Shown: positions 25,875 to 61,983 of the stretch, in pieces
How positions within the stretch are numbered: position 1 is the stretch's first letter
How the letters are laid out: every line of letters begins with the position of its first letter
Assembly (NCBI GenBank): GCA_937960645.1
Contig: CALGPJ010000009.1
Coordinates: 68,522-132,521 of the forward strand
Source: an uncultured Spirochaetia bacterium
GTDB taxonomy: Bacteria > Spirochaetota > Spirochaetia > JABEVK01
Length of the DNA: 64,000 nt
Direction of reading: 5' to 3'
Made by a program: the position numbers and the translations under genes
The notes under the pieces: model-generated
The model's input: only the letters and a program-made list of their open reading frames with translations
What the model was told of the DNA's origin: nothing
The model's database searches: none

Positions 25875-26824
25875 GGCCCCTCTCGGCTCAAGAGGGCCGC
25901 CCCCACGATGGCCGCATCGTCCCCCAAGCGGGCGGCGACGACCTTGACGTTGGACCCGATGACGGGCATGGCGTGGCTTTTCATCGAGGCTTCCACTTTT
26001 CTGACGTAATAATCCCCGAGCTTTTCTACCAGGCCGCCGCCCAACACCACGACCTGCGGGTCCAGGATGTTGATCATGCTGGCGATACCCAGCCCCATCC
26101 ACTCGATAGCCCGATCGATGATGCCCATCACGTCGGGCTGCTTCATCCTGAGTGCCTGGGCGAAGAACTTGCTGGAGATGTTGCGAAAGTCGGTGCCATA
26201 CTCGGCCAATTCGGGGGGGAGGCGGCCGGTGCTGATGAGGAAGGCAGCATCTTTTGCCATGGCGGTGCGGCTGGCCAGAGCCTCCAGATGCCCCAGCTCC
26301 CCGCAACCACAGAGGGGCCCCTCCCGCTGCAGGGTGATGTGCCCCACCTCGCCCGCGTTGCCGCTGGCGCCGCGGTACAGCTTACCGCCGATGACGATGC
26401 CGCCGCCGATCCCGGTTCCGGGAAAAACGCCGAGGACATTTTGGTACTCCCTCAGGTTGGTGGCGTATTCCCCCCAGAGTCCGGCGTTGACGTCATTTTC
26501 CAAAAGGATGGGGAAGGAAAATTTTTTCTGAAGCTTTTCGACAAGAGGAAACTGCTGAAACCCGAGGTTGGGACTCATCACCACTCGGCCGCGCTTTCGG
26601 TCCAGGATGCCGGGGACGGCGATGCCCGCGCCTCGAACCTGAGAAGACTCGATGCTCGCCTTGCTCAAAAGACTCGAAATCATCTCGATCATCTTGCTAA
26701 CGACGAGGTCTGCTTGAGTGATTTTCCCGACCTTTTCCCGAACCTGATGGATCAACTTGCCCTTCTCGTCCAAAAGTCCGGCCGCCATCTTGGTTCCCCC
26801 CAAGTCGAATCCCAAATCGACCAT
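25871..26824 (-). CDS. glk: ROK-family sugar kinase (glucokinase; candidate polyphosphate-glucokinase)
   Basis: Start ATG at 26824 with GAGGGGGG SD (MVDLGFDLGGTK). ROK motifs GEVGHITLQREGPLCGCGELGHLEA. Confidence 0.8.
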   Translation of the reverse strand: MVDLGFDLGGTKMAAGLLDEKGKLIHQVREKVGKITQADLVVSKMIEMISSLLSKASIESSQVRGAGIAVPGILDRKRGRVVMSPNLGFQQFPLVEKLQKKFSFPILLENDVNAGLWGEYATNLREYQNVLGVFPGTGIGGGIVIGGKLYRGASGNAGEVGHITLQREGPLCGCGELGHLEALASRTAMAKDAAFLISTGRLPPELAEYGTDFRNISSKFFAQALRMKQPDVMGIIDRAIEWMGLGIASMINILDPQVVVLGGGLVEKLGDYYVRKVEASMKSHAMPVIGSNVKVVAARLGDDAAIVGAALLSREGP

Positions 26825-30557: not shown

Positions 30558-32738
30558 CTAACGGGTAGACGCCGGGTTTTCGGTCGGTAAAACGAAGCCC
30601 GACAATTCCTGCTCGAGCTGCTTTCCCTGAGCCTTGAGATTTTCCGACATTTGCACCAGTTGACGGGCGATGCCCTTGGTGGCATCCGATCCCTGAGCGA
30701 GATGCACGATGTTTCGGCTCATTTCCTTGGCCCCATTGGACTGCTCGTTCACAGCGTTCTGGATGATGTCGAAGCTGTTGCGCAGGTTTTCGCTGAAATG
30801 CAGGAGCTCATGGAAGACCTTTCCCACCTCGTCGATGGCTGCGGCGATACCCATCACCGCAGTACTGACCGCTCCAATCTTTTCCCGGATGGATTGGATG
30901 GCAGCCTGCGAAGCTTGCCCGAGTTCCCCGATCTTTTCCGCGTCCCTGGTTCCTTTCTCGGTGATGCCGACGCCCTCCATCACCCCGTTACGCAGCTCTT
31001 CCAGAATATCCTGGATGTTGAGCACGGCTGCCTTGCTGTCGTCTGCCAGCTTTCTGATTTCCTCGGCGACTACCGAAAACCCCTTCCCGGCCTCCCCAGC
31101 GTGGGCGGCCTCGATGGCGGCATTCATGGCGAGAAGCCCCGTGTTGTCGGCAATCTGTTTGACCGTTGCCAGGATCTCGTCGATTTTCAGGGCCTGACGA
31201 CTGACCCCGCCCATGGTCTCGAAGGTCAAACTCATCTTTTCGGCGAGCTGGTTGGCCGTCTCCACGGATTGGGACAGGGTTGCCGCTCCCTCGGATGCCA
31301 CCTTTTCGGTAATCTCGGCCTGACCGATCACCTGCCGGGATTGTTCGGTGAGTTGGTTGATTTTGACGCCGATCTCCCGGATCTCCTGATTTTGTTTCAG
31401 GGTCATTTGGTACTGTTCGATCACCTTGTTCTCGACATGGTCGAGGGTCCGGGTGAACTCTTCCATGGTGCTGGAGATTTGCTCGAGGGAGCTGGCGTTT
31501 TCCAGGGTTTGGTTTCCCAGCATGCTGCCGGTGTCGTAGGTCTCGTTCGCGGATTTTTTGAGATCTTCTCCGATTCGCAGCAATTGGGCGATGATCCTAC
31601 CCAGGTTGAGGATGGTCTTGTTGGTGATCTCCGCCAGAAGGCCCAGTTCATCCCGGCTCAGGACGGGGATGACCAACGCCAGGTTTTTGGCCTCCATACG
31701 GCCAAAACCTTCATACACGGCGTTGAGCTGTTTGCGAAGGTTGCTCGCGACAATGATATTCAAAAGGATTGCCAGGGTGATCAAGACCAGGGCTGTCGCG
31801 AACATCAGGATCAGTGTTCGCACTCGGGCCGCGACTCGATCTTGAATGTCCTTAAAAACGGAGACTCCGGTTTCAAGGGCCAGATCGATGAGGGCGCCTG
31901 CCGACATCTCGATTCGTTTTCGGAATGTTTCGGTGGGTAAGTCATCGGGATTGTAGAGCACTTCGATCAATTCCAGAATAGAAGACTCGCGCTCCTGCCA
32001 AAATCGAGGCAAGCGCTCGGCATCGTGTCCAGGGTCCAGAATAGCCTCATGAATGGCATAATTCTCGAGCTGGCTTCGGATTTTGTTGTAGTACTCAGTG
32101 AACCAAAGACTAAAACTGTAGATTTCTCGATACAAGCCCGAATCGATGACGCCCGATCCCGTGTCCTCATTCAACACGAGGATGGCCAGGGACTCCAGCT
32201 TGGAAAGCACGTCCGGGATGAGACCCGAGTAGATTTGCAGCAAACTGTTGGTATGGGCTTCGGTATCTCTGCTAAACCCCGAGTTGACCGCCATTCGATG
32301 TTGAATTTCTTGCAAGGATAGAAATGCCTCGGTGTATGCCTGTCTCAGTTCGGAAACCGAATTGAAATTTTTGGAAATCGATAGCACGCGAGCCTCGAGT
32401 GTCTCCTTTCCAGAACCCTGGCCATCCTCTCCCAGGAGCCTCGAGAGGTTTCCTGCCTCTATTACCTCAAGACCTCGACGGAGTTTTTCGACAAGATCTG
32501 GGGACAAGGGACGCAATAAGCCGGAATTGGGGCGGCCAAGGGCGCTGTCCAGCACCGACTTCCGCAACCGATAAAGGGGGGAATAGAGTTCCAATCCGTC
32601 GAGCTCCCTCCTTGAATTATTCAAGTACTGTAGAGACTCCCCCAGCCAGAAAACCAGAAGCAGGCCCAGGGGGACCAGAAACCCCAGGGACGACAGGAAG
32701 AGTTTGAGCCGGATGCTGAAAATCCTGCGATGGGCCAT
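30558..32738 (-). CDS. Methyl-accepting chemotaxis protein (periplasmic sensor, HAMP, MCP signalling domain)
   Basis: Two TM segments; signalling domain motifs [34 protein letters not shown]. Confidence 0.85.
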
Positions 32739-33883: not shown

Positions 33884-35890
33884 TCAGGGGAAGTCTCGAG
33901 GGGGCTCGCGGGCCGAAAGTTCGCTTTCCAGTCGCAGTTTTCGTTTTCGCACCTCCTCGAGGGCACCGGCCTCACGAAAATCCTCCCATAGGAGCCAACC
34001 TCCGCCCAGGACCCCGGCCCCGCCCAGGATGCCTGCTGTCCAGGAGAGGGTGCTGTAGAGCGTGAGGGGCAGCCTCAGTTCTGCCACGGATTCGTTCTCG
34101 GTCGATTGGTACACCTGGTAGAGCTGGTTTCCGGAATAAATACTCCAGGCCATGATGCCTAGAAGGAGGGCGCCCGACCCGAGTCCCACACCTCCCTGCC
34201 AAAACCGGGATTCCTGTACGGAATCAGCCTTTTCCCTGAGTGTCAACTCGGCAAGGGCGGTTCGCAGTGTTTCTTCTTCGAGCTGTCGCGATCGGCGGCG
34301 GCTTTCAAGCTCCTGTACGATCTCCGGGGACAGGGCCTTCCTGATTTCCTCGAAATTTGCCAACCAGGGAGATCGTATCCAGTAGCCCCGGTCGAGATAG
34401 CGCACCAGGGATTCCTCGTGCCGGCTGGCCACCGTGACCGGCGCCGGCGGTTCAACGGAAATTGCCGAGATCGCCGCAAGCCCATCGTCCTCGATTTCTT
34501 CTACAGGGGGCGGTGCCGGAAGAGGTAATGAAACCACGGCTGCCTCCAGGCGAGGAGGACGGCTCACCAGCCGGCGCTCGCCCGGTACAAAGGGACCGAA
34601 AACTTCCTGGCTCTCTCGTTCCCATTGAATCAAGAAGGGCCCCGGATGGGCTCCTACATCGATGACCAGCGGTGTCATTCCCAGGAAAACGCCGTTGTGG
34701 TAAACACGGCCGGGAAGGGGCTCGCTTACGAGAACAAACCACGATACCGGGGATTCCGAGCTGGGAGAGGGTGCTTCCTGTTGACGACTCAAAGAGCGCA
34801 GGGCCGCCACGAAGGAATCATCCCCATTCCGAACCAGTATCTCTTCCTGCGCGGCGGCCTTTTCCGGCCGAGGCAACAGGACGCGATGCAAAAACACCAG
34901 ACGGCGTCTGGCTTCCTGAGAACCGGGGCCATCGGGATCCAGAAGGAGAAGCTGTTCCAGGCTCGCCTCGGCCGCAGCATATTCGCCGGACTGCTCGGCA
35001 ATCTCTGCCAGAACCCGAAGGGCGCTCACCTTGTCTTCTAAGGAGGCCGAACCGGCCAGGGTCTGTTGCGCCAGCTCTCGGGCCTTATCGAACTCCAACC
35101 GACGGACGTGTTCGCGCGCCCGTGCCGCTACGCTCCCCTCTACAGGCCTTTGGCGTAGAAGCAGAAAACGCCGAGCTGCCCCCCGCAGGCGGCTGCCCAC
35201 CGTGGCTTCTTCGGTGCCGGGATTTTCCCGTTCCAGCTTTTCCAGCAACGAAATCGCTTCCTGAAGGCGGCCCTGCATCAGCACACAAAAGGCCAGATGC
35301 AGTTCAAGGGGTGGGCGCAGGTAGGGGTCTTCCTCGATTTGCAGCAACTCGCGATAAATCAGCTCAGCATCTCGAAAACGCCTCAGCCGTTCCCTCAGGT
35401 AGGCTTCCTCCAAACGTCGCTGGCTCGCCGATGACTGTTCGACCCGGAGGGGGGCTTTTCCTAAAAGATTTCGCGCCGCATTGACGACCACGAGGGCAAA
35501 GGTGTTTTTGGGACCTGACTCTGGTTCGTTTTTTGTGTTTTGCAGCATCTTTTCCAAACGCGCCTCGACATAGAGCTGATCGGCGGAAGCATGGTTTTCG
35601 GCAAAACGCTCCAAAAGCAGGTCCATTCTTCCCAACATGAAAAGGTTTTGGTCGGAAACAGTCTCCAGCCGCACCGCTCGCAACGAGGTATTCACCTCCC
35701 CTTCCCGAAGCTCACGGAGCTCGGTGTTGAGCCAGACGGTGCTCGCCAGAAGTCCGGTAACGAGCACCAGGTACAGCGGAGCACGTCCAAGACTACGAAT
35801 CCTCGCCACGTAGGTCCTCTGCGTAGGAGGAACCCTCTTTGGCCTTGGCGAGCTTTTTGATCTGGGCCGCGGCCTGGACGAGTTGGCCAT
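33884..35890 (-). CDS. Membrane protein with TPR-like repeats and a PEGA-like domain
   Basis: N-terminal TM, helical repeat region, PEGA-like VYHNGVFLGMTPLVIDVGAHPGPFLIQWE, C-terminal TM segments. The first ATG overlaps the upstream gene by ~98 nt; an alternative GTG at 35812 with an AGAGGA SD is plausible. Confidence 0.5.
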   Translation of the reverse strand: MANSSRPRPRSKSSPRPKRVPPTQRTYVARIRSLGRAPLYLVLVTGLLASTVWLNTELRELREGEVNTSLRAVRLETVSDQNLFMLGRMDLLLERFAENHASADQLYVEARLEKMLQNTKNEPESGPKNTFALVVVNAARNLLGKAPLRVEQSSASQRRLEEAYLRERLRRFRDAELIYRELLQIEEDPYLRPPLELHLAFCVLMQGRLQEAISLLEKLERENPGTEEATVGSRLRGAARRFLLLRQRPVEGSVAARAREHVRRLEFDKARELAQQTLAGSASLEDKVSALRVLAEIAEQSGEYAAAEASLEQLLLLDPDGPGSQEARRRLVFLHRVLLPRPEKAAAQEEILVRNGDDSFVAALRSLSRQQEAPSPSSESPVSWFVLVSEPLPGRVYHNGVFLGMTPLVIDVGAHPGPFLIQWERESQEVFGPFVPGERRLVSRPPRLEAAVVSLPLPAPPPVEEIEDDGLAAISAISVEPPAPVTVASRHEESLVRYLDRGYWIRSPWLANFEEIRKALSPEIVQELESRRRSRQLEEETLRTALAELTLREKADSVQESRFWQGGVGLGSGALLLGIMAWSIYSGNQLYQVYQSTENESVAELRLPLTLYSTLSWTAGILGGAGVLGGGWLLWEDFREAGALEEVRKRKLRLESELSAREPPRDFP

Positions 35891-37103
35891 GGTGGGTGTA
35901 GGGGCGCCAACGGTTACTCACCACCGCCACCGAAATCGTCATCAGGGGAAAACGGGCCGGGGTTCCTTGACGGGTCACACTTTCAATATACCCGACTTTG
36001 GCGTCGTGCGGGGAATAAAACCGGGATATTTGTGAATCGAACTTTTGAATGAAGAGTTCGACATATTCCTTCCATCGCGAATAATCGATAACCACTACAT
36101 AATCGTCCCCGCCTTCGTGCCCGAGGAAGATCGAATGATCCCGGATCTCCTCTTTCGCCTGCATCAGGCAGTCCCGCACGAAGAGGATCACCTCGTCCCC
36201 TTTGGCAAAACCGTACTTGTCGTTGTAAGCCTTGAAATGGTCCAGGTCCATGTACAAGACAGCAAAGATCTGTCCGGCAGTCAATCTCGAGTCGATCTCC
36301 TGGACGATCCTTCGGTTGCCGGGCAGCCCCGAAAGAGGATTGGCTCCTCGGGCCTCGTCGTGCATTCGTGCGATCGCCGCCCCCATTTCGTTGAAGGACT
36401 GGGCCAACTCTCCGATTTCGTCGTTTTGATGGATACGTACACGGACCTCCAGATTACCCGCCTGGATGGTTCGGGTTGCCTGCACCAGGAAGCCCAGGGG
36501 CCGAAAGATCTTGACGAACAAATACAGCGCGAAACCACCGTTGACCAGGATTACCAGGATGATGACGAGGACCACCTGACGGTAGAGGCGGTTCATCCAC
36601 TCGCCGATATCCTCCATTTCCAGCTGAAACCGAAGTACCCCGAAGCTCACCGTGGTCAGCGGAAAACTCAGAAAAACCCGCAGGGCGCGCTCCTCCAGTT
36701 TTTGCACGATGGCCTTGCCCTCGAAGGCGCGGCGGGTCAGAACCTCGTTGATTTCCTGGAACTCGGCCTCTGTGGCCCACCCTCCCGGCTGCCCAGACAA
36801 CGCATCCAACAGGACCTCCCCGTTTTCGGAAAAAAGTCGGTAATTGGCCAGGTTCTGTTCCCGCAATTTCTGACGAAGGACCTCCAGATTGTTTGCCCAA
36901 TTGGGATATTCATCGAGGACACCCTGAAGAGAGGTAAGAATCTGGCGCGATTTGTCCTGGGTTTTCAGCACGGCATTTTGAACGATGAGGTCGGTCTGGT
37001 TTTCAAAAATCAGCACGACGAACACGGCGATCAGCGCGAGTGTCATCGCGATGTACATCAGACCGGTGCGAAACGCCAGACTGTTCAACAGTGTTCGGAT
37101 CAC
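35793..37103 (-). CDS. HAMP-GGDEF domain membrane protein (non-canonical GGDDY motif)
   Basis: N-terminal TM, HAMP, then LYMDLDHFKAYNDKYGFAKGDEVIL...FLGHEGGDDYVVVI. Confidence 0.75.
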   Translation of the reverse strand: MIRTLLNSLAFRTGLMYIAMTLALIAVFVVLIFENQTDLIVQNAVLKTQDKSRQILTSLQGVLDEYPNWANNLEVLRQKLREQNLANYRLFSENGEVLLDALSGQPGGWATEAEFQEINEVLTRRAFEGKAIVQKLEERALRVFLSFPLTTVSFGVLRFQLEMEDIGEWMNRLYRQVVLVIILVILVNGGFALYLFVKIFRPLGFLVQATRTIQAGNLEVRVRIHQNDEIGELAQSFNEMGAAIARMHDEARGANPLSGLPGNRRIVQEIDSRLTAGQIFAVLYMDLDHFKAYNDKYGFAKGDEVILFVRDCLMQAKEEIRDHSIFLGHEGGDDYVVVIDYSRWKEYVELFIQKFDSQISRFYSPHDAKVGYIESVTRQGTPARFPLMTISVAVVSNRWRPYTHHGQLVQAAAQIKKLAKAKEGSSYAEDLRGEDS

Positions 37104-37106
37104 GCC

Positions 37107-38114
37107 TTACCTCTCGAGGGGCTGGCCGAGTTGTTCCAGAAGATAATCCAGAAGGGGCTGAAAGGCTTCCTCGTATCGATGAAAATCGGCCAGGGTCACA
37201 TGGCCCATGCCACTCTGCCAGAAAACCCGATTGTTGGGAAATCCCCGGGCGACCAGGGGCAGGTTGTGGCGGAAATCCACCACCTGATCCTGCCAATCCT
37301 GGTGGAGCAGGACGGGGATATCGGGCCGGGGCTTAAAATCAAGACGGGATTCCCAACGGCCCAGGGCCAGAACCCAGGATACCGGAACGTTGTAGATGCC
37401 AACGAGGGGGTCAGGACTTACCAGGGGCTGCAGGCTCCTGAGCCACCACTGGTTCCACCAGGCCAGCCCCTGCCCCACCTCCCAGTACACGTGGCGGATC
37501 AGCGGTGCGCTCAAAATCAGATAGTCCCAGGGAAGTTCCCGGGTGCGGGACATTTCGATCACCGCGGAGGCACCGGTCGAATGCCCCAGCACGACCCAGG
37601 GTCGGGGCAGCAACGCGGATATTTCCTTTAGAGCCTCCAGCCAGGCGTTCAGGGCCTGGGTGTAATCCGAAAACTCGCCGATTCCGGCCCTCTCCCCGCT
37701 CGAAAGGCCGTGGCCAGGAAGGTCGAGGGCCGTGACCGACCACCCCTCGGCCAGCATCACCCGGATGATTCCGGAAAAGTTCCCCAGGCTGGCCAGGTAA
37801 CCATGCAAGACGAACAAGGTTCCGCGCGATGGTCCCGGGGGCAAAAACACCGCCGAGAACACGTCCCCCAGGGGATATTCGATCAAACGAAAGGCAGCAC
37901 GGTTTTTCCCTCCCCAGGGATGCACCACTTCACGAAATTTCCAGTGGACCACGTACTCTTCCAAAAAGGGTGGCATCGGGGCGTCGAGGTCCCGTATATC
38001 CCAGGCGCCAGTCGCGATTTCCCGCCTCAGCCCCATTCGGAAATCGAGGGTGGGATCGGGGGCGAGGGCACAACCGATCATCAAAAAACCGATGCAACCA
38101 TAAAACGATCGCAT
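37107..38114 (-). CDS. Alpha/beta-hydrolase-fold lipoprotein (lysophospholipase-like)
   Basis: Start ATG at 38114 overlapping upstream stop (ATGA); lipobox LMIGCAL; nucleophile elbow VLGHSTGAS. Confidence 0.65.
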   Translation of the reverse strand: MRSFYGCIGFLMIGCALAPDPTLDFRMGLRREIATGAWDIRDLDAPMPPFLEEYVVHWKFREVVHPWGGKNRAAFRLIEYPLGDVFSAVFLPPGPSRGTLFVLHGYLASLGNFSGIIRVMLAEGWSVTALDLPGHGLSSGERAGIGEFSDYTQALNAWLEALKEISALLPRPWVVLGHSTGASAVIEMSRTRELPWDYLILSAPLIRHVYWEVGQGLAWWNQWWLRSLQPLVSPDPLVGIYNVPVSWVLALGRWESRLDFKPRPDIPVLLHQDWQDQVVDFRHNLPLVARGFPNNRVFWQSGMGHVTLADFHRYEEAFQPLLDYLLEQLGQPLER

Positions 38115-39553
38115 CAGCCCTGGTTCCCCAAGGCGAACTTGTGAAAATCCTCGGCGGGAAGGGGCTTGCTGAAATAGTATCCCTGAAAAACCCGGCATCC
38201 GTTTTCGTAGAGCCATTTGACCTGCTCCCAACGTTCCACTCCCTCGACGATGATGCCCTTTTTCATTTGACGCGCCATCCCGATGATGGCCCGCACCGGT
38301 GCTGCGGAATTGACCTCTCCTGGAAGGTCATCGACGAAGCTCTTGTCGATCTTGATGATGGAGATGGCCAGGGTTCGAAGATAGCTCAAACTGGAATAAC
38401 CGGTACCGAAGTCATCCAGCATGATATGAAAGCCCATCCGCAGGAGGTTTTCGATCTTCTTGGCGCTCTCCGCCACGTTCTGCATGAGGGCACCTTCGGT
38501 GATCTCCAGCTTCACGTTGTGGTGGGGTATTCCGAGACGCTTGCAGAGTCGGATCGTATCGTGAATGATGTCCTCCTGGGTGAACTGGCGGGTGGAAAGG
38601 TTAATGCCCATTTGTAGAGACGAGAGCCCGATTTTCTGCCACTCGCCCAATTCCTGCAGGGACCTTCGTAGAATCCAGGCCCCTAAGGGGACGATCAGCC
38701 CCGTCTCCTCCGCAATCGGAACAAATTTTCCCGGAGAAAGAAAGCCCATACTGGGATGTTTCCAGCGGATGAGGGCTTCGGCTCCTGTGACCCGAAACTT
38801 TCCGGTTTCCGGATCCAGGAGTTCCACCTGGGGTTGGTAGTACATTTGAAACTGGGAATGCTTTAGATCCGAGGCGCTTTGAAGGGCCTGGAGCAAGCCA
38901 TTTTGAATCTCGATGCGCTCCATCTGTTCCATGCGAAGGCTGGGAGTGAATGTAAACACCGACACCTGTTGGCGAACAGCCACACTGAGCGCGATGTCGG
39001 TGCTTCGCAGAATCTCGGACTTGGTGTCGCCGTCTCTGGGATAGAGGGCCACTCCCAAATTGACTCGGATGGAGATATTGTATCCCCCGAGCACGTGCGA
39101 TTTTTCGGTATCGCGAACCAGCCGCTGAAGGGTCTGGTTGAACGTGGCCGAATCGGAAATATCGAAAAGTACGATCAAAAATTCATCGTCCCGGGTGTGG
39201 TACACCTTGCCGCGATTTTCGATCACTGACTGGATGCGGACTCCGGTCTGGTACAAAATCCATTCGGGTATCTTGCTGGAAAAGGTGCGGCGAACCAGGT
39301 TGAAAATTTCGTTGAGTTTCAGGAAACAAAGCGCTTTAGGCCGGTCATCTCTTTTCAGAATCTCGTGCAGCTGGGTTTGCATCACCACACCGTTCGGCAA
39401 ACCGGAATCGGGGTTGGTGACCAGTTGCTTGGCTAACCGCCGCCGCTCGTTAAGAATGACGTTGTACCTTTCGCGCAAAAGCTTAAATTTCTGCACGAGC
39501 CGTTGGTACTTGACCTGAGTTTCCAGCTTTTCAGACTGGTTCAACAGACCCAA
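38114..39553 (-). CDS. c-di-GMP phosphodiesterase: degenerate GGDEF + intact EAL domain
   Basis: EAL motifs EALIRW, DDFGTGYSSL, KIDKSFV, EGVE. The GGDEF position reads GGYNI (degenerate). Confidence 0.8.
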   Translation of the reverse strand: MGLLNQSEKLETQVKYQRLVQKFKLLRERYNVILNERRRLAKQLVTNPDSGLPNGVVMQTQLHEILKRDDRPKALCFLKLNEIFNLVRRTFSSKIPEWILYQTGVRIQSVIENRGKVYHTRDDEFLIVLFDISDSATFNQTLQRLVRDTEKSHVLGGYNISIRVNLGVALYPRDGDTKSEILRSTDIALSVAVRQQVSVFTFTPSLRMEQMERIEIQNGLLQALQSASDLKHSQFQMYYQPQVELLDPETGKFRVTGAEALIRWKHPSMGFLSPGKFVPIAEETGLIVPLGAWILRRSLQELGEWQKIGLSSLQMGINLSTRQFTQEDIIHDTIRLCKRLGIPHHNVKLEITEGALMQNVAESAKKIENLLRMGFHIMLDDFGTGYSSLSYLRTLAISIIKIDKSFVDDLPGEVNSAAPVRAIIGMARQMKKGIIVEGVERWEQVKWLYENGCRVFQGYYFSKPLPAEDFHKFALGNQG

Positions 39554-40879: not shown

Positions 40880-41947
40880 TTACTGGTTGTTCGGGTTTTG
40901 CTGAGCGGCGTCCTGGGGAGGGAAGTCCTCAATGGTCGCCATCTTGCGCATCTCGAGGGCACGGAGGACTTGCAAGCGGCCAAGGCGGCTCAATTCGAAA
41001 CTGCGGCGGGCAGATTCACGGGCGTTGAGGATGCCCCAGGTCCCCTCATCATCGATGTCTTCACGGAGGTTGAGCACAGCTCGATCGTAGATGATTTTGA
41101 TGTCTTTGAAGTAGCTGATAAAGTCACCGCCCTCGGTTGCGGCATCCCGGTGGATGATCAAACCCTTGAGCCGGATGTAGGGAGCGCTGCGAGGATAGAG
41201 GGGAAGGATGCGCAGTTCACGGTTTCTCACCTCGGTCTGATACTGGGGGTTTCTCCATTGCAGGGTGTTCCAGCCATCCGACTGCAAATACCCGAGGAAG
41301 ATGGTCTGCTGTTGTGCATTCTCGTTCTCCAGCACGATGCTGAGACCGTGGGGGTAGTTACGGCCGAGGTAGTTGACCTGGATGTCTCGGATGACTCCGA
41401 CATTTTTGACGACACCGTAACCGACAAATTGATCACCAGGTTTGCTTTCGGGACCGTTCTGGCCTTGCTGCCGGGGAAGAGTGGCGTAGGCCGGAATGTC
41501 GAAAGGAGGCACGACCATGGCCGAGCTGGGGACCCGGTAGAGCGGGAAATGTACCCGGACGCCCATCACCGTTTGACCACCGTACCTGCTGGCGTCATCC
41601 TTGACAGCGGCTTCCCGGATTTGGGACTGAACGACGTTTTGTATCACACGGGCAGAGCTGGTCAGGCGGACTTCCCAGTTTCGAATTCGGAGGGAGGTCT
41701 TCATGACAGCCTTATCCGCAGCGGTAAAGCTTGTCCCCGCCTGGGTGCTGTAGTCGATCAAAGTCTGACCGTGTTCTTTTCTCATGTCTTCGGGCAAGTT
41801 GTCGCGGCCGGCGATTTCCGTGTCACCTACCAACTGGGAAAAATCGATCAAGGTAGCCAAACCGGTAAAGTCATCGGTTTGCTGGGCGACCAGACTCCCT
41901 GCGGCAAACATCGTCGATAACATAAACAAGGTTGCCAAGCGTTTCAT
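40880..41947 (-). CDS. flaA: Flagellar filament outer-layer (sheath) protein FlaA of periplasmic flagella
   Basis: Sec signal peptide; motifs recalled as FlaA-family hallmarks (GYGVVKNVGVI, FISYFKDIKIIYDRAVL). Strong sigma70 promoter and AAGGAG SD upstream, terminator downstream. Confidence 0.6.
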   Translation of the reverse strand: MKRLATLFMLSTMFAAGSLVAQQTDDFTGLATLIDFSQLVGDTEIAGRDNLPEDMRKEHGQTLIDYSTQAGTSFTAADKAVMKTSLRIRNWEVRLTSSARVIQNVVQSQIREAAVKDDASRYGGQTVMGVRVHFPLYRVPSSAMVVPPFDIPAYATLPRQQGQNGPESKPGDQFVGYGVVKNVGVIRDIQVNYLGRNYPHGLSIVLENENAQQQTIFLGYLQSDGWNTLQWRNPQYQTEVRNRELRILPLYPRSAPYIRLKGLIIHRDAATEGGDFISYFKDIKIIYDRAVLNLREDIDDEGTWGILNARESARRSFELSRLGRLQVLRALEMRKMATIEDFPPQDAAQQNPNNQ

Positions 41948-55662: not shown

Positions 55663-56999
55663 TCGATGTCCCTTAAAATTCGTTTTTCGTCATAGAGACC
55701 TATGAACAGCAAGCCCAACAGGCAGATCACCAGGGCCACGGCCCCCGAAAGCCTGAGACCCAGGTCGTTATCCTGGCGGGCCCCCAACTGAATCAGGCTG
55801 GGGAAAATCAGATTGGCGAAGGCGATGCCGAACTTCATCATCAGGGTACGGACCCCAAAAAAGAGCCCCTCGTTTCCGAAGCCGCTGGTTTTCAGGGACG
55901 CATGACTCATGTCGGCCACCATGGCGTTGGGCAGGATGCTGAAAATCGCCAGAGGCACGATGTAGAGAAGGATCACCACCAGCCCCTGAATCTCTCGAGG
56001 GAAGGGCAGGAAGCCCAACAGGACCACCAAACCGAAGACCGCGGCATCCAGAGCGAACGCCACCATCATCAACACCTTCTTCCCAAACTTTTTGGCCAGC
56101 ACGTTGACAGGCACATAGAGGGCAAAACTGCCAAAAAACATGATGTAGAGATAGATCGACGTCCACCCCTTTTCCAGCCCCAGAAGGACGATGACGTAGT
56201 AGCCGATGCCAATCTGGATGAAGGTGAGGGCCATCCAGTACATGAGGTCCGATGCCACGAACCAACGGAAGTTGGCATTGCCCCAGAGGCGTCTCAGCGC
56301 CGGCAGCAGGGGCTCGCCCTGCTGCCGCTGACCCAGGTCACGATCCTCCCGGATGGCCAGGACGGGAAGGAGCATCAGGAAAAAACTCAGGAGGCTGTAA
56401 ACGGCCATGATGAGCTGGAAGGCCAGGAGATTGGAGGGGAAGTGGACCTTGACCAGATCGAGGATGATGAAGGTGGAACCGCCGATGACGAAGCCCAGGG
56501 CCCAGGTAACGCTGATCATGGTGCTCAAATCGAGGCGCTCTTTTTGGGTCTTGCCCAGTTCGCTCAAAAGGGCCGTGTAGGGGGTGACGTAAAGGGTGAA
56601 AAAGAGATAGTACAAAAACAGCATGACCGCCAGCCACACCACATTCCACCCACTTTCCTGGCCCACCGGCGGAACGAAGATGAGAAAGCTAAAGAGGGCA
56701 AAGGGAAGGGCGCTAAAGGCCAAAAAGGGAATACGCCTGCCCCAGCGCGACGAAAAACGATCGGAGATTCCCGCCACCAGGGGGTCGGTAACCGCGTCGA
56801 AGACCCTTCCGCCGGCGCTCAAGAGTCCCAGCCAGGTGAACACCCCGCCGATCAGGGCCGTGCCGATGAACAGGGGAAAGAGGGGATTGACACCGGCTTC
56901 GTCGGGAGGTTGATAAAAAACGTTGAGCAGGTTGGCCGGCGCGTAGCTCGCCAGAGACCACCCCAGCTGCCCCAGGGCGTAGAGCCATTTCTTCGTCAT
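55659..56999 (-). CDS. MFS transporter, glycoside-pentoside-hexuronide (GPH) cation symporter family
   Basis: Start ATG at 56999 (MTKKWLYALGQLGW). 12-TM pattern; GPH-family DRFSSRWGRR motif. Confidence 0.8.
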   Translation of the reverse strand: MTKKWLYALGQLGWSLASYAPANLLNVFYQPPDEAGVNPLFPLFIGTALIGGVFTWLGLLSAGGRVFDAVTDPLVAGISDRFSSRWGRRIPFLAFSALPFALFSFLIFVPPVGQESGWNVVWLAVMLFLYYLFFTLYVTPYTALLSELGKTQKERLDLSTMISVTWALGFVIGGSTFIILDLVKVHFPSNLLAFQLIMAVYSLLSFFLMLLPVLAIREDRDLGQRQQGEPLLPALRRLWGNANFRWFVASDLMYWMALTFIQIGIGYYVIVLLGLEKGWTSIYLYIMFFGSFALYVPVNVLAKKFGKKVLMMVAFALDAAVFGLVVLLGFLPFPREIQGLVVILLYIVPLAIFSILPNAMVADMSHASLKTSGFGNEGLFFGVRTLMMKFGIAFANLIFPSLIQLGARQDNDLGLRLSGAVALVICLLGLLFIGLYDEKRILRDIE

Positions 57000-57083
57000 G
57001 GGCCGATTATAGCACACTTCGGGACTGGAAACCCTATCCCTGGGATGTTTGAGGACAATAAAAGCGCCCAACGGCAAAAAGCC

Positions 57084-57947
57084 TCAGGGGTTGAAGGGCC
57101 GATCGGTGCTGGCATAGGGCCCCGGGGGACTGCCACCCACCTTGACGATGCCGTGGTTTCCCTGGCCGCTGAGGTCCGTAAGGCTGGAGCCATTCCAGGT
57201 ATCGAACAAGTAGAGGGCGACGGTGGATCCCGGCTGATTTTGAACGGTGTCGGGACCCGGGGTGAAGTTGGAGCTGTACACCACCTGTTGGGAGACCCTG
57301 AGCCCGCTCAGAAGCCCCTTGTACCCCAGGCTACCGGGATAGTCGTGCTTCTCGGCGGCGAGCACCAGGTAGGGGTCGCTGTTGGGCTTGGTGGTGGTGC
57401 GGTCATTTTTGTAGCTGATGTTCCCGGTCGGCCCCGTTCCGGTGGCCTCGAGCTGGCCATCGATGTAGAGACGCATTTCACCGCTACTGCCGTGGCGCGT
57501 GGCGGCAACATGGTGCCACTGGCCGTCGCGAAGGTCGGCGGAACTGGAAGCCAGGATGGTCTTTCCCGAGCTTCCCTGGGCCACCCCGAACGCGATTTTT
57601 CCAGCGGCCATGCCGATACCCCAGTCGCCGTACTCGTTGCTCCCCGAACCGTCATCGATATCCCGGTCCACGATGATGTGGGAATACACCCATCCCGTTC
57701 CATCGGTGGCATTGGGGTCAGCGGTGCCGCCGGGATTGTCGGCGGCGTGGGTCTTGAGCCAGAACTCCACCGTGAAATCGAGCCCGACGTTGACGCTCTT
57801 GTTCACCAGCGGGATCTTTACCCGATCGATGTCCCCGTTCTGATGCCCCTGAAAACCATAGGAGGCCAGGGCCACCCCTCCCTGATCCTGAGGGCCGGGG
57901 CACCCCCACAGGAAAATCAAGACAAGACTCCAGTACCAGCTCTTCAT
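57084..57947 (-). CDS. Lipoprotein with concanavalin-A-like lectin / LamG domain
   Basis: Lipobox LWGC; LamG-like TVEFWLK...DGQWHHVAATR...MRLYIDGQL. Confidence 0.55.
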   Translation of the reverse strand: MKSWYWSLVLIFLWGCPGPQDQGGVALASYGFQGHQNGDIDRVKIPLVNKSVNVGLDFTVEFWLKTHAADNPGGTADPNATDGTGWVYSHIIVDRDIDDGSGSNEYGDWGIGMAAGKIAFGVAQGSSGKTILASSSADLRDGQWHHVAATRHGSSGEMRLYIDGQLEATGTGPTGNISYKNDRTTTKPNSDPYLVLAAEKHDYPGSLGYKGLLSGLRVSQQVVYSSNFTPGPDTVQNQPGSTVALYLFDTWNGSSLTDLSGQGNHGIVKVGGSPPGPYASTDRPFNP

Positions 57948-57974
57948 ACTCCCCCCAGATTCTCGGGAAAAAGA

Positions 57975-58253
57975 TCAATCTTTCTTGCCCGTAACCTTTA
58001 TTACGTGATATCCAAACTGGGTACTGACCACGTCGCTGATGCTCCCCAGGCCCAGCTTTCTGACCGCCGACTCGAAGGGGGCCACCATCTGCCCCGGACC
58101 GAACCATCCCAAATCCCCGCCCTTGCTCTTGCTCGGGCAGGTGCTGAATTCCCGCGCCAGAGCTTCGAAGGAAGCGCCCTGCTTGAGCCGCTGCCTCAGC
58201 TGCTCTGCCAATGCACGATCTTTAACCAGGATGTGACTGGCACGCCACTGCAT
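57975..58253 (-). CDS. ppiC: Parvulin-type peptidyl-prolyl cis-trans isomerase
   Basis: 92 aa; ASHILVK...GGDLGWFGPGQMVAPFE...GYHVIKV. Confidence 0.75.
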   Translation of the reverse strand: MQWRASHILVKDRALAEQLRQRLKQGASFEALAREFSTCPSKSKGGDLGWFGPGQMVAPFESAVRKLGLGSISDVVSTQFGYHVIKVTGKKD

Positions 58254-58262
58254 ACCACCTCC

Positions 58263-59534
58263 TCAGGTGTCGAGCACCAAAAACCGGTTCGGAATGGCCA
58301 CGAATTCGGGACCCTCGAAATACTCTCGCTGGGCGATGGCCGAGCTCCAGCGGGAGGAGGCCAAAAGATCGCGCAGGTTTCCGCGAAGCGCAAAGTCCCG
58401 ATAGGCCTGCCGTGCTTGCCGGGGGCTCTCACTTCCCAGGGCAAAAGGGATGGATGCCGAGAAGTCTCCGCTGGCCTCGTCCAGCTGCCAATCGTCGAGG
58501 TGATAAATTTCCAAATAGGGGCTGACACGCAGCTCCTCTTTGGAAAGACTGCCTGGCCCCACACTGAAATTCACGGGATGACCGCTGACGGGCAGACCCA
58601 GAAAGTGGGCCTCCCGCTGGCTGGCGGTGAAAGCCCGGACCACACCATCCCGGACCAGTTCGGTATCCTTGAGCATCACCCCTTCCTCGTCGAACCAGCG
58701 AGAAAAGGGACTGTTGTAAAGTTTGACCAGGGGCTTCAGGGTGACGGTGTCGCCTGTTACTGTCGGGAAAAGGGGTTTTCCTACCTCCCATGTCGAATCT
58801 CCCGAGTAAAGCGCCGCCCCGTCGAGCTGGCGCAGCAGGTAAGAGAACACCAGGCCGGGCAGATTTCCTCCCAGGACCACCAGGGAAGGCATTTCCCTCT
58901 CCCAGCGGCGGGGCGTCCTCAGGGCCTGGCGCTCCTCCTCGAAACGCTGGGCTTTGAGCGTGATCCGCTCGGGCAAATACTCACCATGTCGAAAGCGCAA
59001 GGAGTGATTTTCGGATTGCGCTTCGATTTCGCACCAGTGCCCCACGTGTTCCATCTGCCGTCCGAGACTGTCGAGGTAGAGGGTTTCCAGCCCGATAGCG
59101 GCGAAGCGTGTTGCGATTTCCCGGTTTGCGCCGGCATAAAACGCCTCTGCCAAAGACGGCAGCCAATCGGCCAAATCGGGCTTTTTGGCCAGGGACGATT
59201 CCTGGGTCTGGCCTGGCCCCGATGGGCCACGGTGCATCGGGAACCAGGGCCAGGGTTCCTCCTCCTGAGCGGACAGGGCTTTCTGAATTTCCGCCTTGAT
59301 TTGATCGATGGTCAAATGTGCGCTCAATTCCAGGGTATGCTCTCGGGTCCACTTCCGACGACGGGCATGAAAATCCTGGAAAATTTTGAGCCGGCAAGTC
59401 CAGGTCTCCTGACGCTCAACTTCCCCGCCACTACCCTGAATCCAGGACCGGGCGGCCGTCACCTTCCGAAAGAAGAGCAATTTCCATTTGCCGAGGCCGA
59501 GTTCATCGAGAGCTTGGGTCCAAATTTTGATCAT
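58263..59534 (-). CDS. TldD/PmbA-family metalloprotease-related protein
   Basis: 423 aa; C-terminal region resembles TldD/PmbA (low sequence specificity). Confidence 0.5.
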   Translation of the reverse strand: MIKIWTQALDELGLGKWKLLFFRKVTAARSWIQGSGGEVERQETWTCRLKIFQDFHARRRKWTREHTLELSAHLTIDQIKAEIQKALSAQEEEPWPWFPMHRGPSGPGQTQESSLAKKPDLADWLPSLAEAFYAGANREIATRFAAIGLETLYLDSLGRQMEHVGHWCEIEAQSENHSLRFRHGEYLPERITLKAQRFEEERQALRTPRRWEREMPSLVVLGGNLPGLVFSYLLRQLDGAALYSGDSTWEVGKPLFPTVTGDTVTLKPLVKLYNSPFSRWFDEEGVMLKDTELVRDGVVRAFTASQREAHFLGLPVSGHPVNFSVGPGSLSKEELRVSPYLEIYHLDDWQLDEASGDFSASIPFALGSESPRQARQAYRDFALRGNLRDLLASSRWSSAIAQREYFEGPEFVAIPNRFLVLDT

Positions 59535-59568
59535 CGAATATATTTTAACCCAAAAACTTCAAAAGGTC

Positions 59569-59598
59569 TTGCAACACAAGAGCGGAGTTGGCTATAAT
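59569..59598 (+). promoter_or_regulatory. Sigma70-like promoter TTGCAA-N18-TATAAT upstream of micro-ORF
   Basis: cTTGCAAcacaagagcggagttggcTATAATct, followed 12 nt later by AAGGAGGTGAGG SD. Confidence 0.5.
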
Positions 59599-59624
59599 CT
59601 GCCGATATTGAAGGAGGTGAGGCT

Positions 59625-59714
59625 GTGCCCTGTGGAAGAAAGCGTAAACGCAAAAAAATTGCCACCCACAAGCGGAAGAAAAAGCTCCGCAAAAACCGTC
59701 ACAAGAAAAAGTAA
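59625..59714 (+). CDS. 29-aa highly basic peptide (MPCGRKRKRKKIATHKRKKKLRKNRHKKK), bTHX/AURKAIP1-COX24-like small ribosome-associated-type protein
   Basis: GTG start 4 nt after GGAGGTGAGG; open to TAA at 59712-59714; 21 of 29 residues K/R/H; below the ORF-track length cut-off. Confidence 0.45.
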   Translation: MPCGRKRKRKKIATHKRKKKLRKNRHKKK

Positions 59715-59715
59715 G

Positions 59716-60342
59716 ATCCACACTTTTCGGCGATTCTTTTCTTCAATACTGACAAGCATTTTATCACTGTTCACGATTACGATTCTGTCATTGGATGGGC
59801 AAGAGGTTCCTTCGACGAGCCTCTTTCCGCCCAACCATCCCGGATATTTTATGGGACGAATCCACTGGAAAGTCGGGGACCCCATCCGTATCAGTTTGGA
59901 TTCCAAAGTCAACCTGAGCATCAAGTCGATCCGGACAAGCCAGCGCAACGCCACACGGGAGCTGAGCGCCGAGGCCCAAACCTCCCCTCTCACCGCTTTG
60001 CCGCCGGCACGTACGAACAGTGACTTTCAGCTGGAAACCGGGATTCAGCGTCAGTTCCAGGGAAACTTGGTCGGGGTGGTGCAGGAAGTACTCCCCGATG
60101 GTAATCTGCGCGTGGCCGCCAGCCGCAAACTGGACTTGACCGGAAGCCTGGAGGAACTAGAAATCGAGGGGCTCGCCGCCCCTGTCCTGATCCAGGGCGG
60201 CAGGATTCACCTGCAAGACCTGGCCCAGTTGCGGCTGAAACTTCGTCTGCCGGCCCAGGGCAGACCCATGGAAGACCTTAGCCAGGAGCAGATCCTTCAA
60301 CGCTACTGGTCGCAATTCTGGGATTCGTTGAGCTCGCCGTAG
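59716..60342 (+). CDS. flgH: FlgH-like flagellar L-ring family protein (start codon unresolved)
   Basis: VGDPIRISL ... VVQEVLPDGNLRVAASRKLDLTGSLEELEIEGLAAPVLIQGGRIHLQDLAQLRLKL ... ILQRYWSQFWDSL parallels FlgH family blocks. Signal-like RRFFSSILTSILSLFTITIL has no in-frame ATG/GTG between 59488 and it; the frame opens directly after the micro-ORF stop. Confidence 0.45.
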   Translation: MHTFRRFFSSILTSILSLFTITILSLDGQEVPSTSLFPPNHPGYFMGRIHWKVGDPIRISLDSKVNLSIKSIRTSQRNATRELSAEAQTSPLTALPPARTNSDFQLETGIQRQFQGNLVGVVQEVLPDGNLRVAASRKLDLTGSLEELEIEGLAAPVLIQGGRIHLQDLAQLRLKLRLPAQGRPMEDLSQEQILQRYWSQFWDSLSSP

Positions 60343-60382
60343 TCCCCCAGACGTTCCCAATCCCCAACGCAGGAAAAAACGA

Positions 60383-60574
60383 CTAAAACCTCAGCAGATC
60401 GTGCTGGTCGCAGACCTTGTCTGCGCGCATTTTTTTGTGCCAGAGCGTGCAGTTGCCATCCTCGCGGATGTCGACCTTGAACATGTTCTGTTCTTTCATC
60501 ACCGTTCGATTTCCTTGCCACTGGCGGCAGGTGTAGCAGGCCTTCTTCGTAGCCGGGTGTAAGTCACGTGCCAT
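60383..60574 (-). CDS. Small Cys-containing protein (63 aa; C13, C16, C42, C55), hypothetical
   Basis: AAAGGAGATGTT-ATG SD/start; own promoter-like element upstream. Confidence 0.45.
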   Translation of the reverse strand: MARDLHPATKKACYTCRQWQGNRTVMKEQNMFKVDIREDGNCTLWHKKMRADKVCDQHDLLRF

Positions 60575-60612
60575 AACATCTCCTTTTTGACTTCACTTTA
60601 TTCATTATCGAC

Positions 60613-61983
60613 TTAAAATAGTGTGGAACCACAGTAAGTGTCAATGTATTTTTCAATGTCGAACTTTCTTTTGAGTCCGTTGTAATTCATGTAGCGAATG
60701 GTTCCGTAAACGCCGCGTTCGGTCCAGGGGCGGTCGTGCTTGCCGAAGCACCAGGCCACCCCGGCATAACCGTTGGGGTCTCGCCCGTCCAACTCGTACT
60801 TGTTGTTGAGATACAGGGCCCAGCTCCAGGCCAGCTCCGGGCTGGGGCTCCATTCCAAAAGTTTTTTTCCCCAGTACATGCGCATGTAGCCGTGCATTTT
60901 TCCGGTGCGCACCATTTCCAGCTGGCACGCATTCCACGCCGGATCGTGGGTCCGGGCCTCCTCCCACTCCGCCAGCGAGTAGACATATTCCCGGGGATCA
61001 TTTCGGTGCTGGTGGAGGGTCTTGAGACACCACTCGGGAAGGGCGTCGTAGCGATCGAAGGCGGGGTTGTACCAGACGAAGTTCATCGACAATTCCCGCC
61101 GGACCACGAGCTCTTCCACGAAGGCGGCCGCACCCTCCCCACCCCGCTCGAGGGCGGCCAAAGCCAATCGGCGGGCACTGATCTGACCAAAGTGGAGGTA
61201 GGGACTCATGCCGCTTTGAGCCCGGGCGTTGGGATCGTTGCGTTGGGTGTCGTAGTGGGCCAGGTGCCTCTCCCGCCATTCCTCGAAGCTGTTCCAGGCT
61301 GCGGTGTACCCACCGCGAAAGGCCGTGAGGCCAACGCTTCGATCCACCGCAAGGCTGTCGGTCAGTTCCGGTCCTGGCACCACCGGCTCGAATCCCTCCA
61401 GAAGCTCGGCGAAATCCCTCGAGTAAAATGGGGCCGCTGCCGGTGGTAAGGGGTCCTCGTCATGCAAAAAGATCGGCATGAGTTTTTCGAGAGCTGGCCG
61501 GAGGACGGCGGCCGAGTAGGCTTCCTTCGGATAGGCGGTAGCGACGGGCACCACCACATGCCCCTCGATCTCGGCAACCGGACAGGGTGCCTCTCGTACC
61601 AGCTCGGCCCGCCACGCCCGCTGCATGGGAAGGTAGCCCCGGTCGCAGACCACCAGCCGCGCCAGCTGCGCCAAACGGAGGATGCCCTGGGGCATGGGAG
61701 CCCGAATCATCACGAAACGGATGCCCCGAGACTCCAGCTCATGCTGCGTTTCAACGAGCCCTTCGATCATGAAGGCGAAGTGGCGCAGGTTGGCCTCGGG
61801 GTATTTCTCCCAGAGGTTGAAGCCGACCACCAGGGGGAGATGTTTCTCGTTGGCCTTTTCCAGGGCCCAGACCAGGGCGGGGTTGTCCTGCACCCGTTGG
61901 TCCACGTTCATCCAGTAGAGGACGTACTCGCCCCGGGCGTTGATGGGTTCTTTCTTCAACCAATGCAGACGGTTCTGGTGCAT
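60613..61983 (-). CDS. phr: Class II CPD deoxyribodipyrimidine photolyase
   Basis: VLYWMNVDQRVQDNPAL (class II N-terminal signature) and FAD-binding C-terminal domain. Confidence 0.8.
   Translation of the reverse strand: MHQNRLHWLKKEPINARGEYVLYWMNVDQRVQDNPALVWALEKANEKHLPLVVGFNLWEKYPEANLRHFAFMIEGLVETQHELESRGIRFVMIRAPMPQGILRLAQLARLVVCDRGYLPMQRAWRAELVREAPCPVAEIEGHVVVPVATAYPKEAYSAAVLRPALEKLMPIFLHDEDPLPPAAAPFYSRDFAELLEGFEPVVPGPELTDSLAVDRSVGLTAFRGGYTAAWNSFEEWRERHLAHYDTQRNDPNARAQSGMSPYLHFGQISARRLALAALERGGEGAAAFVEELVVRRELSMNFVWYNPAFDRYDALPEWCLKTLHQHRNDPREYVYSLAEWEEARTHDPAWNACQLEMVRTGKMHGYMRMYWGKKLLEWSPSPELAWSWALYLNNKYELDGRDPNGYAGVAWCFGKHDRPWTERGVYGTIRYMNYNGLKRKFDIEKYIDTYCGSTLF
60615..60644 (-). promoter_or_regulatory. 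Sigma70-like promoter TTGACA-N18-TATTTT for the small Cys protein
   Basis: Reverse complement cattTTGACActtactgtggttccacacTATTTTaag; -35 overlaps the photolyase stop region. Confidence 0.35.

Follow-up and report, generated by a model that had tools for sequence, protein, structure and literature searches.

A bS22 gene linked to, and apparently overlapped out of frame by, a gene for a FlgH-like protein in a clade of spirochaetes

One criterion for membership of the bS22 class of ribosomal proteins is binding in the 30S pocket of h2, h27, h44, and h45, and one for the FlgH class is an outer-membrane ring around the rod. Termination–reinitiation is a general mechanism of translational coupling in bacterial operons. 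The bS22 of Borrelia, which had been left unannotated, starts with GUG, is the product of a candidate essential gene, and is analogous to mitochondrial mS38 (Sharma et al. 2023, PMC10618245). For overlaps between genes on the same strand, a route has been published in which a start codon is lost and a codon within the upstream gene takes its place (Fonseca et al. 2013, PMC3887535), and the greatest length of a real co-directional overlap in a large survey was 56 bp (Palleja 2008, PMC2478687). Here, we describe a locus in a stretch of DNA of 64,000 nucleotides (nt), hereafter the window, from an uncultured Spirochaetia bacterium (contig CALGPJ010000009.1, positions 68,522 to 132,521), in which a 29-codon gene for bS22 lies directly upstream of a gene for a FlgH homologue. 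From comparisons of the sequence with its relatives, we hold it just probable that a single stretch of 83 nt is read in two frames, for bS22 and for the exported FlgH homologue, beginning at twin GTG codons served by a bipartite Shine–Dalgarno sequence.

The upstream gene (rpsV-like; 59625–59714, forward strand) has a GTG start and a TAA stop at 59712–59714, and the list of open reading frames (ORFs) with their translations gives its product of 29 amino acids (aa) as MPCGRKRKRKKIATHKRKKKLRKNRHKKK. Lysine or arginine occupies 19 of the 29 residues, so that the peptide is highly basic, and its length is within the norm of 28–33 aa. In searches of the PDB, the peptide matched the bS22 of Borrelia burgdorferi (8fmw_V; E = 3e-9, identity at 25 of 28 residues), the bS22 of Flavobacterium johnsoniae (7jil_5; E = 2e-7), and a chain of entry 9i5v named "AURKAIP1/COX24 domain-containing protein" (E = 3e-7). 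A preliminary description of this DNA had likened the peptide to proteins with two names; the AURKAIP1/COX24 name is indeed carried by the 9i5v chain, and "bTHX-like" is the name of no PDB match. Scans of the peptide against Pfam and NCBIfam gave no match, as short low-complexity queries are usually filtered out, and an exact-sequence look-up in a collection of approximately 15 billion proteins found no copy of it. A back-translated DNA pattern for this type of bS22 occurred at at least 120 places in species-representative genomes; among the 80 matches with listed titles, nearly all bore the name of Spirochaetota or of a spirochaete genus, and two were titled simply "bacterium". Among the spirochaete copies, GTG was the start codon in 116 of 129, and AAGGAG was found 6–9 nt 5′ of the GTG in 119 copies other than that of the window.

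The relatives that carry the FlgH-like gene fall into two sets. The window's clade comprises six lineages to which the overlap proposed below applies (the window itself, L001/L128, L002, L003, L084, and L129; hereafter the overlapped lineages), and six more distant lineages (L018, L130/L131, L132, L133, L134, and L136) have a canonical start for the FlgH-like gene. Within the overlapped lineages, the bS22 peptide is 100% identical across all 29 residues, with 4–20 synonymous differences per pair of lineages; every difference is synonymous, and two residues are added at the C-terminus in L129. This pattern indicates that the bS22 gene is under strict purifying selection. Together with the matches to ribosome chains in the PDB, it identifies the 29-codon ORF, which the preliminary description had put forward as possibly real, as a genuine gene for ribosomal protein bS22 of the spirochaete type. 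The sequence of L084 (DYOB01000016.1) is titled as a metagenome-assembled genome of "Borreliella garinii" from a sulfidic-cave sample, a label that looks wrong; its bS22 starts with ATG, differs from the Borrelia peptide, and precedes an overlapped FlgH-like gene.

The downstream frame matched the Pfam FlgH family (PF02107) at 59812–60321, covering profile positions 4–171 of 172 (E = 9.3e-13; 48.6 bits against a gathering cut-off of 27), and ten relatives scored 46–69 bits. When a profile of the family was compared with the PDB, it matched Salmonella FlgH (7bgl_A; E = 2.5e-10). A Foldseek search with an AlphaFold model also returned Salmonella FlgH as the best match (7cbl_A; E = 4e-8, probability 1.00). 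FlgH chains from LP-ring structures took the first four places (E = 4e-8 to 8e-7), and nothing but such chains gave a significant match; the model itself is moderate (pLDDT 64), and the TM-scores were approximately 0.4. The mature part of the protein evolves with pN/pS of 0.2–0.5 against five relatives. N-terminal to it lies a signal-peptide hydrophobic core, FFSSILTSILSLFTITILSL (59734–59793), with a likely signal peptidase I cleavage site near the LDG–QE junction (59794–59805). The segment that follows the bS22 stop codon is almost neutral (pN approximately equal to pS), and its sequence is almost randomised; in all six overlapped lineages it is in frame and stop-free, with length differences in multiples of 3, and the Kyte–Doolittle maximum over 12 residues is at least 2.0 in each of them. 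The end of the segment, (A/G) before Q, aligns with the cleavage region of the canonical relatives, (A/G) before (E/Q/D)SLW. As the preliminary description had read it, the downstream frame thus consists of a signal-peptide-like segment joined to a FlgH family protein, and we identify it as a true FlgH homologue, the export and cleavage of which are predicted. An RRFF motif in the window was considered as a Tat signal and rejected, as it is missing in the relatives.

The protein missed the NCBIfam FlgH equivalog cut-offs (best score 21.8 bits vs 247–414), the window's signal peptide does not end in a lipobox cysteine, which points to the signal peptidase I type, and the gene lies outside flagellar operons, with neither flgI nor flgG as a neighbour. 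The neighbours in the window are a PmbA/TldD-like gene, a gene for a 63-aa cysteine-containing protein, and a photolyase gene, and those in relatives are miaA, dxs, and FapA. For these three reasons, the equivalog score, the lipobox, and the gene neighbourhood, we do not call the FlgH-like protein an L-ring protein in function. An outer-membrane L ring is not expected in a spirochaete with periplasmic flagella. The window also encodes the flagellar filament outer-layer (sheath) protein FlaA (40883–41947, reverse strand; PF04620, E = 1.8e-74), which has been described as specific to spirochaete periplasmic flagella (PMC11247099). The spirochaete-type bS22 and the FlaA gene together identify the host as a spirochaete; FlaA marks it as one with periplasmic flagella, and the presence of a homologue of FlgH, the L-ring protein, is therefore itself a puzzle.

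The linkage of the two genes is strict; conservation of the arrangement in relatives had been named as a check in the preliminary description. In each of the 12 lineages with readable DNA (12 of 12), bS22 directly precedes the FlgH-like gene, a count that covers the family members whose DNA could be retrieved; a thirteenth member has a 233-nt gap at the same place. A scan of genome contigs with FlgH-like peptide patterns found no relative, and a wider profile search for FlgH-like proteins enlarged the close clade by few members. Behind most spirochaete bS22 genes lies an unrelated gene, at a distance of 40–280 nt, and the FlgH-like gene is confined to the lineages listed above. From their N-terminal sequences, we take the genes that follow most spirochaete bS22 genes to be dxs, folP, a kinase gene, and a cdaA-like gene. 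Of these, what is presumably dxs, again read from the N-terminal sequence, is the direct neighbour of bS22 in many spirochaetes without a FlgH-like gene. In L134, dxs follows the FlgH-like gene. The distribution suggests an ancestral order of bS22, FlgH-like gene, and dxs, from which the FlgH-like gene was lost repeatedly.

The junction between the two genes occurs in two states. In the six canonical lineages, the FlgH-like gene starts at an ATG or GTG of its own, 8–140 nt after the bS22 stop codon, and encodes a normal signal peptide of 18–22 aa (e.g., MRAGWLLLLLLTTALAGA before ESLW in L018). A canonical start lies near the bS22 stop in L018, L130, and L132, and in L018 and L132 the ATG is 8–11 nt after the stop and has no Shine–Dalgarno sequence of its own. 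The interval from the bS22 stop to the hydrophobic core contains no canonical start in the window, L001/L128, L003, L084, or L129, and in L129 the core begins at the bS22 stop codon itself. Between the TAA at 59712–59714 and the core, the window offers only ATC, ATA, CTG, and ATT codons; the first canonical codon is TTG 59791, at the end of the core. Comparison with the canonical relatives shows that the canonical FlgH-like start was lost in the window's clade. The statement of the preliminary description that no canonical start precedes the signal peptide holds for the interval between the TAA and the core, but not for the sequence further upstream.

The preliminary description had the FlgH-like frame begin at the TAA of bS22, and that reader missed its upstream continuation through the bS22 ORF: the frame is in fact open back to 59488. 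It contains an in-frame GTG at 59632, GTG at 59617, and TTG at 59608, which lie inside or just before the bS22 ORF, in its +1 frame. We consider it likely, from the conservation described below, that the FlgH-like gene starts at GTG 59632 (59632–59634), which would give a gene of 236 codons plus stop (59632–60342). The two start codons would be 7 nt apart, and the genes would share a dual-frame segment of 83 nt (59632–59714; 89 nt in L129), or 92% of the bS22 gene, in which frame 0 encodes bS22 and frame +1 would encode the n-region of the FlgH-like signal peptide. The proposed start, at position +7 of bS22, is formed by the Cys codon TGT and the G of the Gly codon. A GTG in the +1 frame thus requires that this Cys be encoded by TGT, and the +1 frame acquires a stop wherever Ile is encoded by ATA or Leu-Arg by CTG or TTG followed by AGR.

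Relative to bS22, the FlgH-like frame is +1, and no stop codon interrupts it anywhere across the bS22 ORF in 6 of the 6 overlapped lineages, compared with 40% of 40 background bS22 genes that encode the same core peptide, and all six lineages use TGT, compared with 30% of the same background. The two features occur jointly in only 1 of the 40 background genes, and among the five canonical lineages with a readable Cys codon, four use TGC and none combines the GTG with an open frame. The joint occurrence in 6 of 6 genes, against 1 of the 45 comparison genes (the 40 background genes and the five canonical FlgH-linked lineages), corresponds to Fisher p = 4e-7, uncorrected for phylogeny. In the single background gene with both features (L093), the +1 ORF ends 23 codons after bS22 and has no similarity to FlgH, and it was rejected as a further case. 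Among the six lineages, every change within the overlap is silent for bS22 and alters an amino acid in the +1 frame. In-frame stops upstream restrict the possible canonical starts in L001 and L129 to the GTGs at −8 and +7. The −8 codon, GTG 59617 in the window, lies inside the Shine–Dalgarno sequence and is an improbable alternative that would add 5 residues; it has no upstream ribosome-binding site. Two further codons were rejected: TTG 59608 also lacks an upstream ribosome-binding site and is not conserved, and TTG 59488 is upstream of the promoter, with in-frame stops there in relatives.

The region ahead of the two GTG codons carries a signature of its own. The extended Shine–Dalgarno sequence AAGGAGGTGAGG (59611–59622) has a GGAGG core 7 nt before GTG 59625 and a second GAGG (59619–59622) 9 nt before GTG 59632. 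The string AAGGAGGTGAGGC is unchanged in 6 of the 6 overlapped lineages, and its 3′ extension, GTGAGG, which is present in all six, occurs in 0 of 119 background spirochaete bS22 leaders. It is also missing from the four readable canonical FlgH-linked leaders, which consist of AAGGAG and 6–9 nt. Over the whole initiation region, the block AAGGAGGTGAGGC[T/C][G/A]TGCCCTGTGGA is invariant in the six lineages, whereas 23 of the 25 codons from 5 to 29 of bS22 vary synonymously. Further upstream, the sigma-70-type promoter reported in the preliminary description is present (59569–59598), with TTGCAA (−35), an 18-nt spacer, and TATAAT (−10), and 10 of 12 consensus positions match; like the Shine–Dalgarno sequence before the 29-codon GTG ORF, it was as described there. 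A consensus scan of 59400–60700 found three promoter-like sites against 0.6 expected, and TCTTGC or TTGAC followed by TATAAT occurs at the equivalent place in L001, L002, L003, L084, and L129. The short 5′ leader between the −10 element and the Shine–Dalgarno sequence contains a CCGATA motif (59602–59607), probably either a regulatory site or the region in which transcription starts. The motif recurs in the leader of each of the six overlapped lineages, but its spacing to the start codon varies, so that it is not column-invariant in the alignment. The leader RNA had no Rfam match, and no predicted structure beyond that of shuffled controls was found in the initiation region (z = +0.98).

From these features, the following mechanism can be proposed. 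The promoter at 59569–59598 would produce an mRNA with a short, unstructured leader and a very strong extended Shine–Dalgarno sequence, on which ribosomes would initiate at either of the two GTGs in their different frames. Initiation at GTG 59625 (frame 0) would yield the 29-aa bS22, and initiation at GTG 59632 (frame +1) a FlgH-like preprotein of 236 aa; we infer both the use of the second codon and the relative rates of the two initiations. The first 27 codons of the FlgH-like gene, as the +1 reading of bS22, would supply a long positive n-region, with a predicted net charge of +5 to +8, followed by the hydrophobic core, a site of the signal peptidase I type, and, as the mature periplasmic protein, a FlgH homologue of approximately 180 aa. 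In evolutionary terms, the ancestral state would be a bS22/FlgH-like pair in which the second gene had its own start 8–140 nt after the bS22 stop; in the window's clade, this start would have been lost and replaced by one inside the upstream bS22 gene, in agreement with the route already published for same-strand overlaps (PMC3887535).

Several points weigh against such an overlap. In a survey of 338 genomes, none of 715 cases was a genuine co-directional overlap longer than 60 bp, and the most frequent artefact was a downstream gene that had been lengthened at its 5′ end relative to its orthologues (Palleja 2008, PMC2478687), a pattern that the overlap model resembles when it is set beside the orthologues. 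TGT is also found in the canonical lineage L018; the GTG inside the signal peptide of L002 could serve as a normal start (with a 13-aa signal); and the signal peptide of the canonical lineage L134 has no charged n-region, indicating that this condition is tolerated in the family. GTG 59632 is at a sub-optimal distance of 14 nt from the main GGAGG core. The residues of the +1 frame are not conserved beyond the constraint imposed by bS22; only the lack of stops and a positive charge persist, the latter in part dictated by the codons of bS22. The six lineages are also related, so that the counts of 6/6 are not independent and their true significance is weaker; their bS22 genes nevertheless differ at 4–20 synonymous sites per pair. 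The general prior against long co-directional overlaps (PMC2478687) likewise favours the explanation suggested in the preliminary description, i.e., reinitiation at a near-cognate codon after the TAA at 59712–59714, without any overlap. In the window, this codon would be ATC 59716 (MHTFRRFFSS...), which yields a textbook n-region (RR), and in the relatives it would be ATC, ATT, ATA, or CTG. Homology places the ancestral N-terminus right after the bS22 stop, the ATG of L018 and L132, with no Shine–Dalgarno sequence of its own, suggests an ancestral coupling to bS22 translation, and a near-cognate codon lies within 7 codons of the stop in every lineage. However, near-cognate initiation in bacteria usually reaches approximately 1% or less of that at AUG. 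The kind and the position of the candidate codon change from lineage to lineage, and a hydrophobic segment would be expected to contain Ile and Leu codons in any case. A canonical restart codon within a few nt of the stop is absent in the window, L001, L003, L084, and L129, and the signal peptide so produced would have no positive charge in L001, L003, and L129, the last of which offers CTG alone. Reinitiation is thus conceivable, but it leaves unexplained three features conserved in the six lineages, namely the TGT, the stop-free +1 frame, and the invariant initiation block with its Shine–Dalgarno extension, and we regard it as unlikely.

The other explanations are less compatible with the data. 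A programmed +1 frameshift in or at the end of bS22 would generate a fusion with a Lys/Arg-rich n-region, for which the FlgH-like frame is correctly placed (+1 relative to bS22 in all six lineages) and the A-rich run of Lys codons at the 3′ end of bS22, AAG AAA AAG TAA, provides a sequence on which tRNA-Lys could slip. This end is not a conserved shift site, since the genes end in AAG AAA AAG TAA, AAG AAA AAA TAA, AAG AAG AAG TAG, or AAG AAG AAA TAG and, in L129, in AAG AAG AAG CTG CGC TGA with two extra codons. No stimulatory RNA structure was predicted and no Rfam match was found, and although a late frameshift has no need of a +1 frame that opens as early as codon 3, the frame is open from that codon; we therefore consider frameshifting very improbable. 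Only a shade less improbable is that the annotated start at ATG 59851 is correct, giving a cytoplasmic FlgH fragment of 163 aa (59851–60342, forward strand), or that the gene is a decaying pseudogene, with the upstream open frame accidental in either case. In its favour, the public protein P0001 is so called in NCBI, ENA, and Logan, and P0004 and P0005 are truncated calls as well. These three calls (163, 153, and 156 aa, respectively), however, begin at different and non-equivalent positions, and the call at ATG 59851 omits 13 residues of the Pfam domain (39 nt) and the entire export signal. The block QEVPSTSLFPPNHPGYF, which is upstream of this ATG and part of the domain, has pN/pS of 0.1–0.4, in line with the constraint on the mature part, and the hydrophobic segment has stayed in frame, stop-free, and hydrophobic in six lineages even though its sequence is almost randomised. 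Given the purifying selection and the Pfam domain upstream of ATG 59851, the 163-aa call is a truncation. Two other public proteins, P0002 and P0006 of two relatives, are called from the GTG inside bS22 (227 and 237 aa), and bS22 is not called in any gene table returned for the contigs of these public proteins; the bS22 of the window is a new, unannotated member of a known family. Finally, the preliminary description had raised a sequencing or assembly frameshift that hides an ordinary ATG-initiated gene. Four independent assemblies of the same organism (two from ENA and two from Logan) differ by 0–3 single-nucleotide polymorphisms and no indel over 59560–59860, and the architecture is repeated in five more divergent lineages from other samples, which refutes this idea and leaves it a negligible probability.

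The FlgH-like gene is followed, 67 nt after its stop codon, by a terminator-like hairpin and T-run found in a consensus scan (60409–60435, forward strand), which sits inside the 3′ end of a convergent 63-aa gene; the region contains three terminator-like sites against 1.9 expected, so that this is a pattern match alone. The convergent gene (60383–60574, reverse strand) has counterparts in L002 (1257–1451), L003 (5506–5697), and L129 (1822–2013) and is conserved beside the FlgH-like gene in four lineages, with 63–89% identity. Its product has four invariant cysteines and two invariant histidines (C13, C16, C42, C55, H46, and H58) and belongs to no Pfam family; a weak hint of a YfhL-type ferredoxin was obtained (E = 0.024). 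Upstream of bS22, a forward-strand ORF of 1231 aa (55902–59597) is the shadow of four reverse-strand genes, for a major facilitator superfamily (MFS) transporter, a LamG-domain protein, a rotamase, and a PmbA/TldD-like protein, and is an artefact of the 59% G+C content. Elsewhere in the window, signalling genes of the GGDEF, HAMP-GGDEF, GGDEF-EAL, and methyl-accepting chemotaxis protein types occur on the reverse strand (7230–8234, 30558–32738, 35793–37103, and 38114–39553), and a polyphosphate kinase 1 gene adjoins one for a Ppx/GppA phosphatase with an extra HD domain (22171–26306, reverse strand).

Three aspects of this locus are apparently new: the strict linkage of bS22 and the FlgH-like gene in spirochaetes, the loss of the FlgH-like start in one clade, and the evidence for a replacement start inside bS22. 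In bacteria, a long overlap on one strand is generally put down to a misplaced start codon, and the usual remedy, a canonical start further downstream, is missing in most lineages of the clade. What is left is a genuine long overlap or a near-cognate start in a conserved gene, and both situations are rare. If the overlap is real, it would be a clade-conserved co-directional overlap longer than any accepted in the survey of Palleja (PMC2478687), taking up 92% of the upstream gene, and, with a coupled two-gene operon as the point of departure, a preserved intermediate stage of start-codon migration; which of the two starts is chosen would also fix the proportion of a ribosome component to a cell-envelope protein. 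For annotation, the consequence is already visible in a bS22 peptide that is absent from the 15-billion-protein collection and in FlgH-like calls that are inconsistent, being either truncated or extended. For spirochaetes, a FlgH homologue without a lipobox follows bS22 in all lineages examined, even though their flagella do not cross the outer membrane.

Compared with the described systems, the bS22 of the window is closest to that of B. burgdorferi (bb0822; PDB 8FMW chain V), with which it shares the GTG/GUG start, a length of approximately 29 aa, a highly basic composition, identity at 25 of 28 residues, and the fact that automatic annotation had missed it. It is also homologous to the bS22 of F. 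johnsoniae and to the 9i5v entry, the family for which some records use the AURKAIP1/COX24 name. Unlike the Borrelia gene, it has the FlgH-like gene directly behind it and apparently overlapping it; a scan of Borrelia-group loci revealed no ORF of at least 80 aa that starts within 300 nt downstream of bS22. The FlgH-like protein resembles Salmonella FlgH (7CBL, 7BGL) in its near full-length Pfam match, its predicted FlgH fold, and its N-terminal export signal, whereas the identity is merely about 20% and the lipoprotein signal of enterobacterial FlgH has no counterpart in the window protein. Termination–reinitiation coupling has its likeness in the canonical lineages L018 and L132, with their ATG 8–11 nt after the stop and no separate Shine–Dalgarno sequence; the window differs in having no ATG, GTG, or TTG near the stop. 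With known co-directional overlaps that arose when a lost start codon was replaced within the upstream gene (Fonseca et al. 2013, PMC3887535; holD-rimI with its overlap of 32–56 bp, PMC2478687), the proposed arrangement shares the same strand, the different frame, the 5′-extended downstream gene, and conservation at the nucleotide level throughout a clade. It would depart from them in its length of 83 nt (89 nt in L129), compared with 56 bp for the longest real case of that survey, in the 92% of the upstream gene that is covered, in the two starts set 7 nt apart behind one Shine–Dalgarno region, and in the nature of the upstream gene, which encodes a ribosomal protein and, in Borrelia, is a candidate essential gene (PMC10618245).

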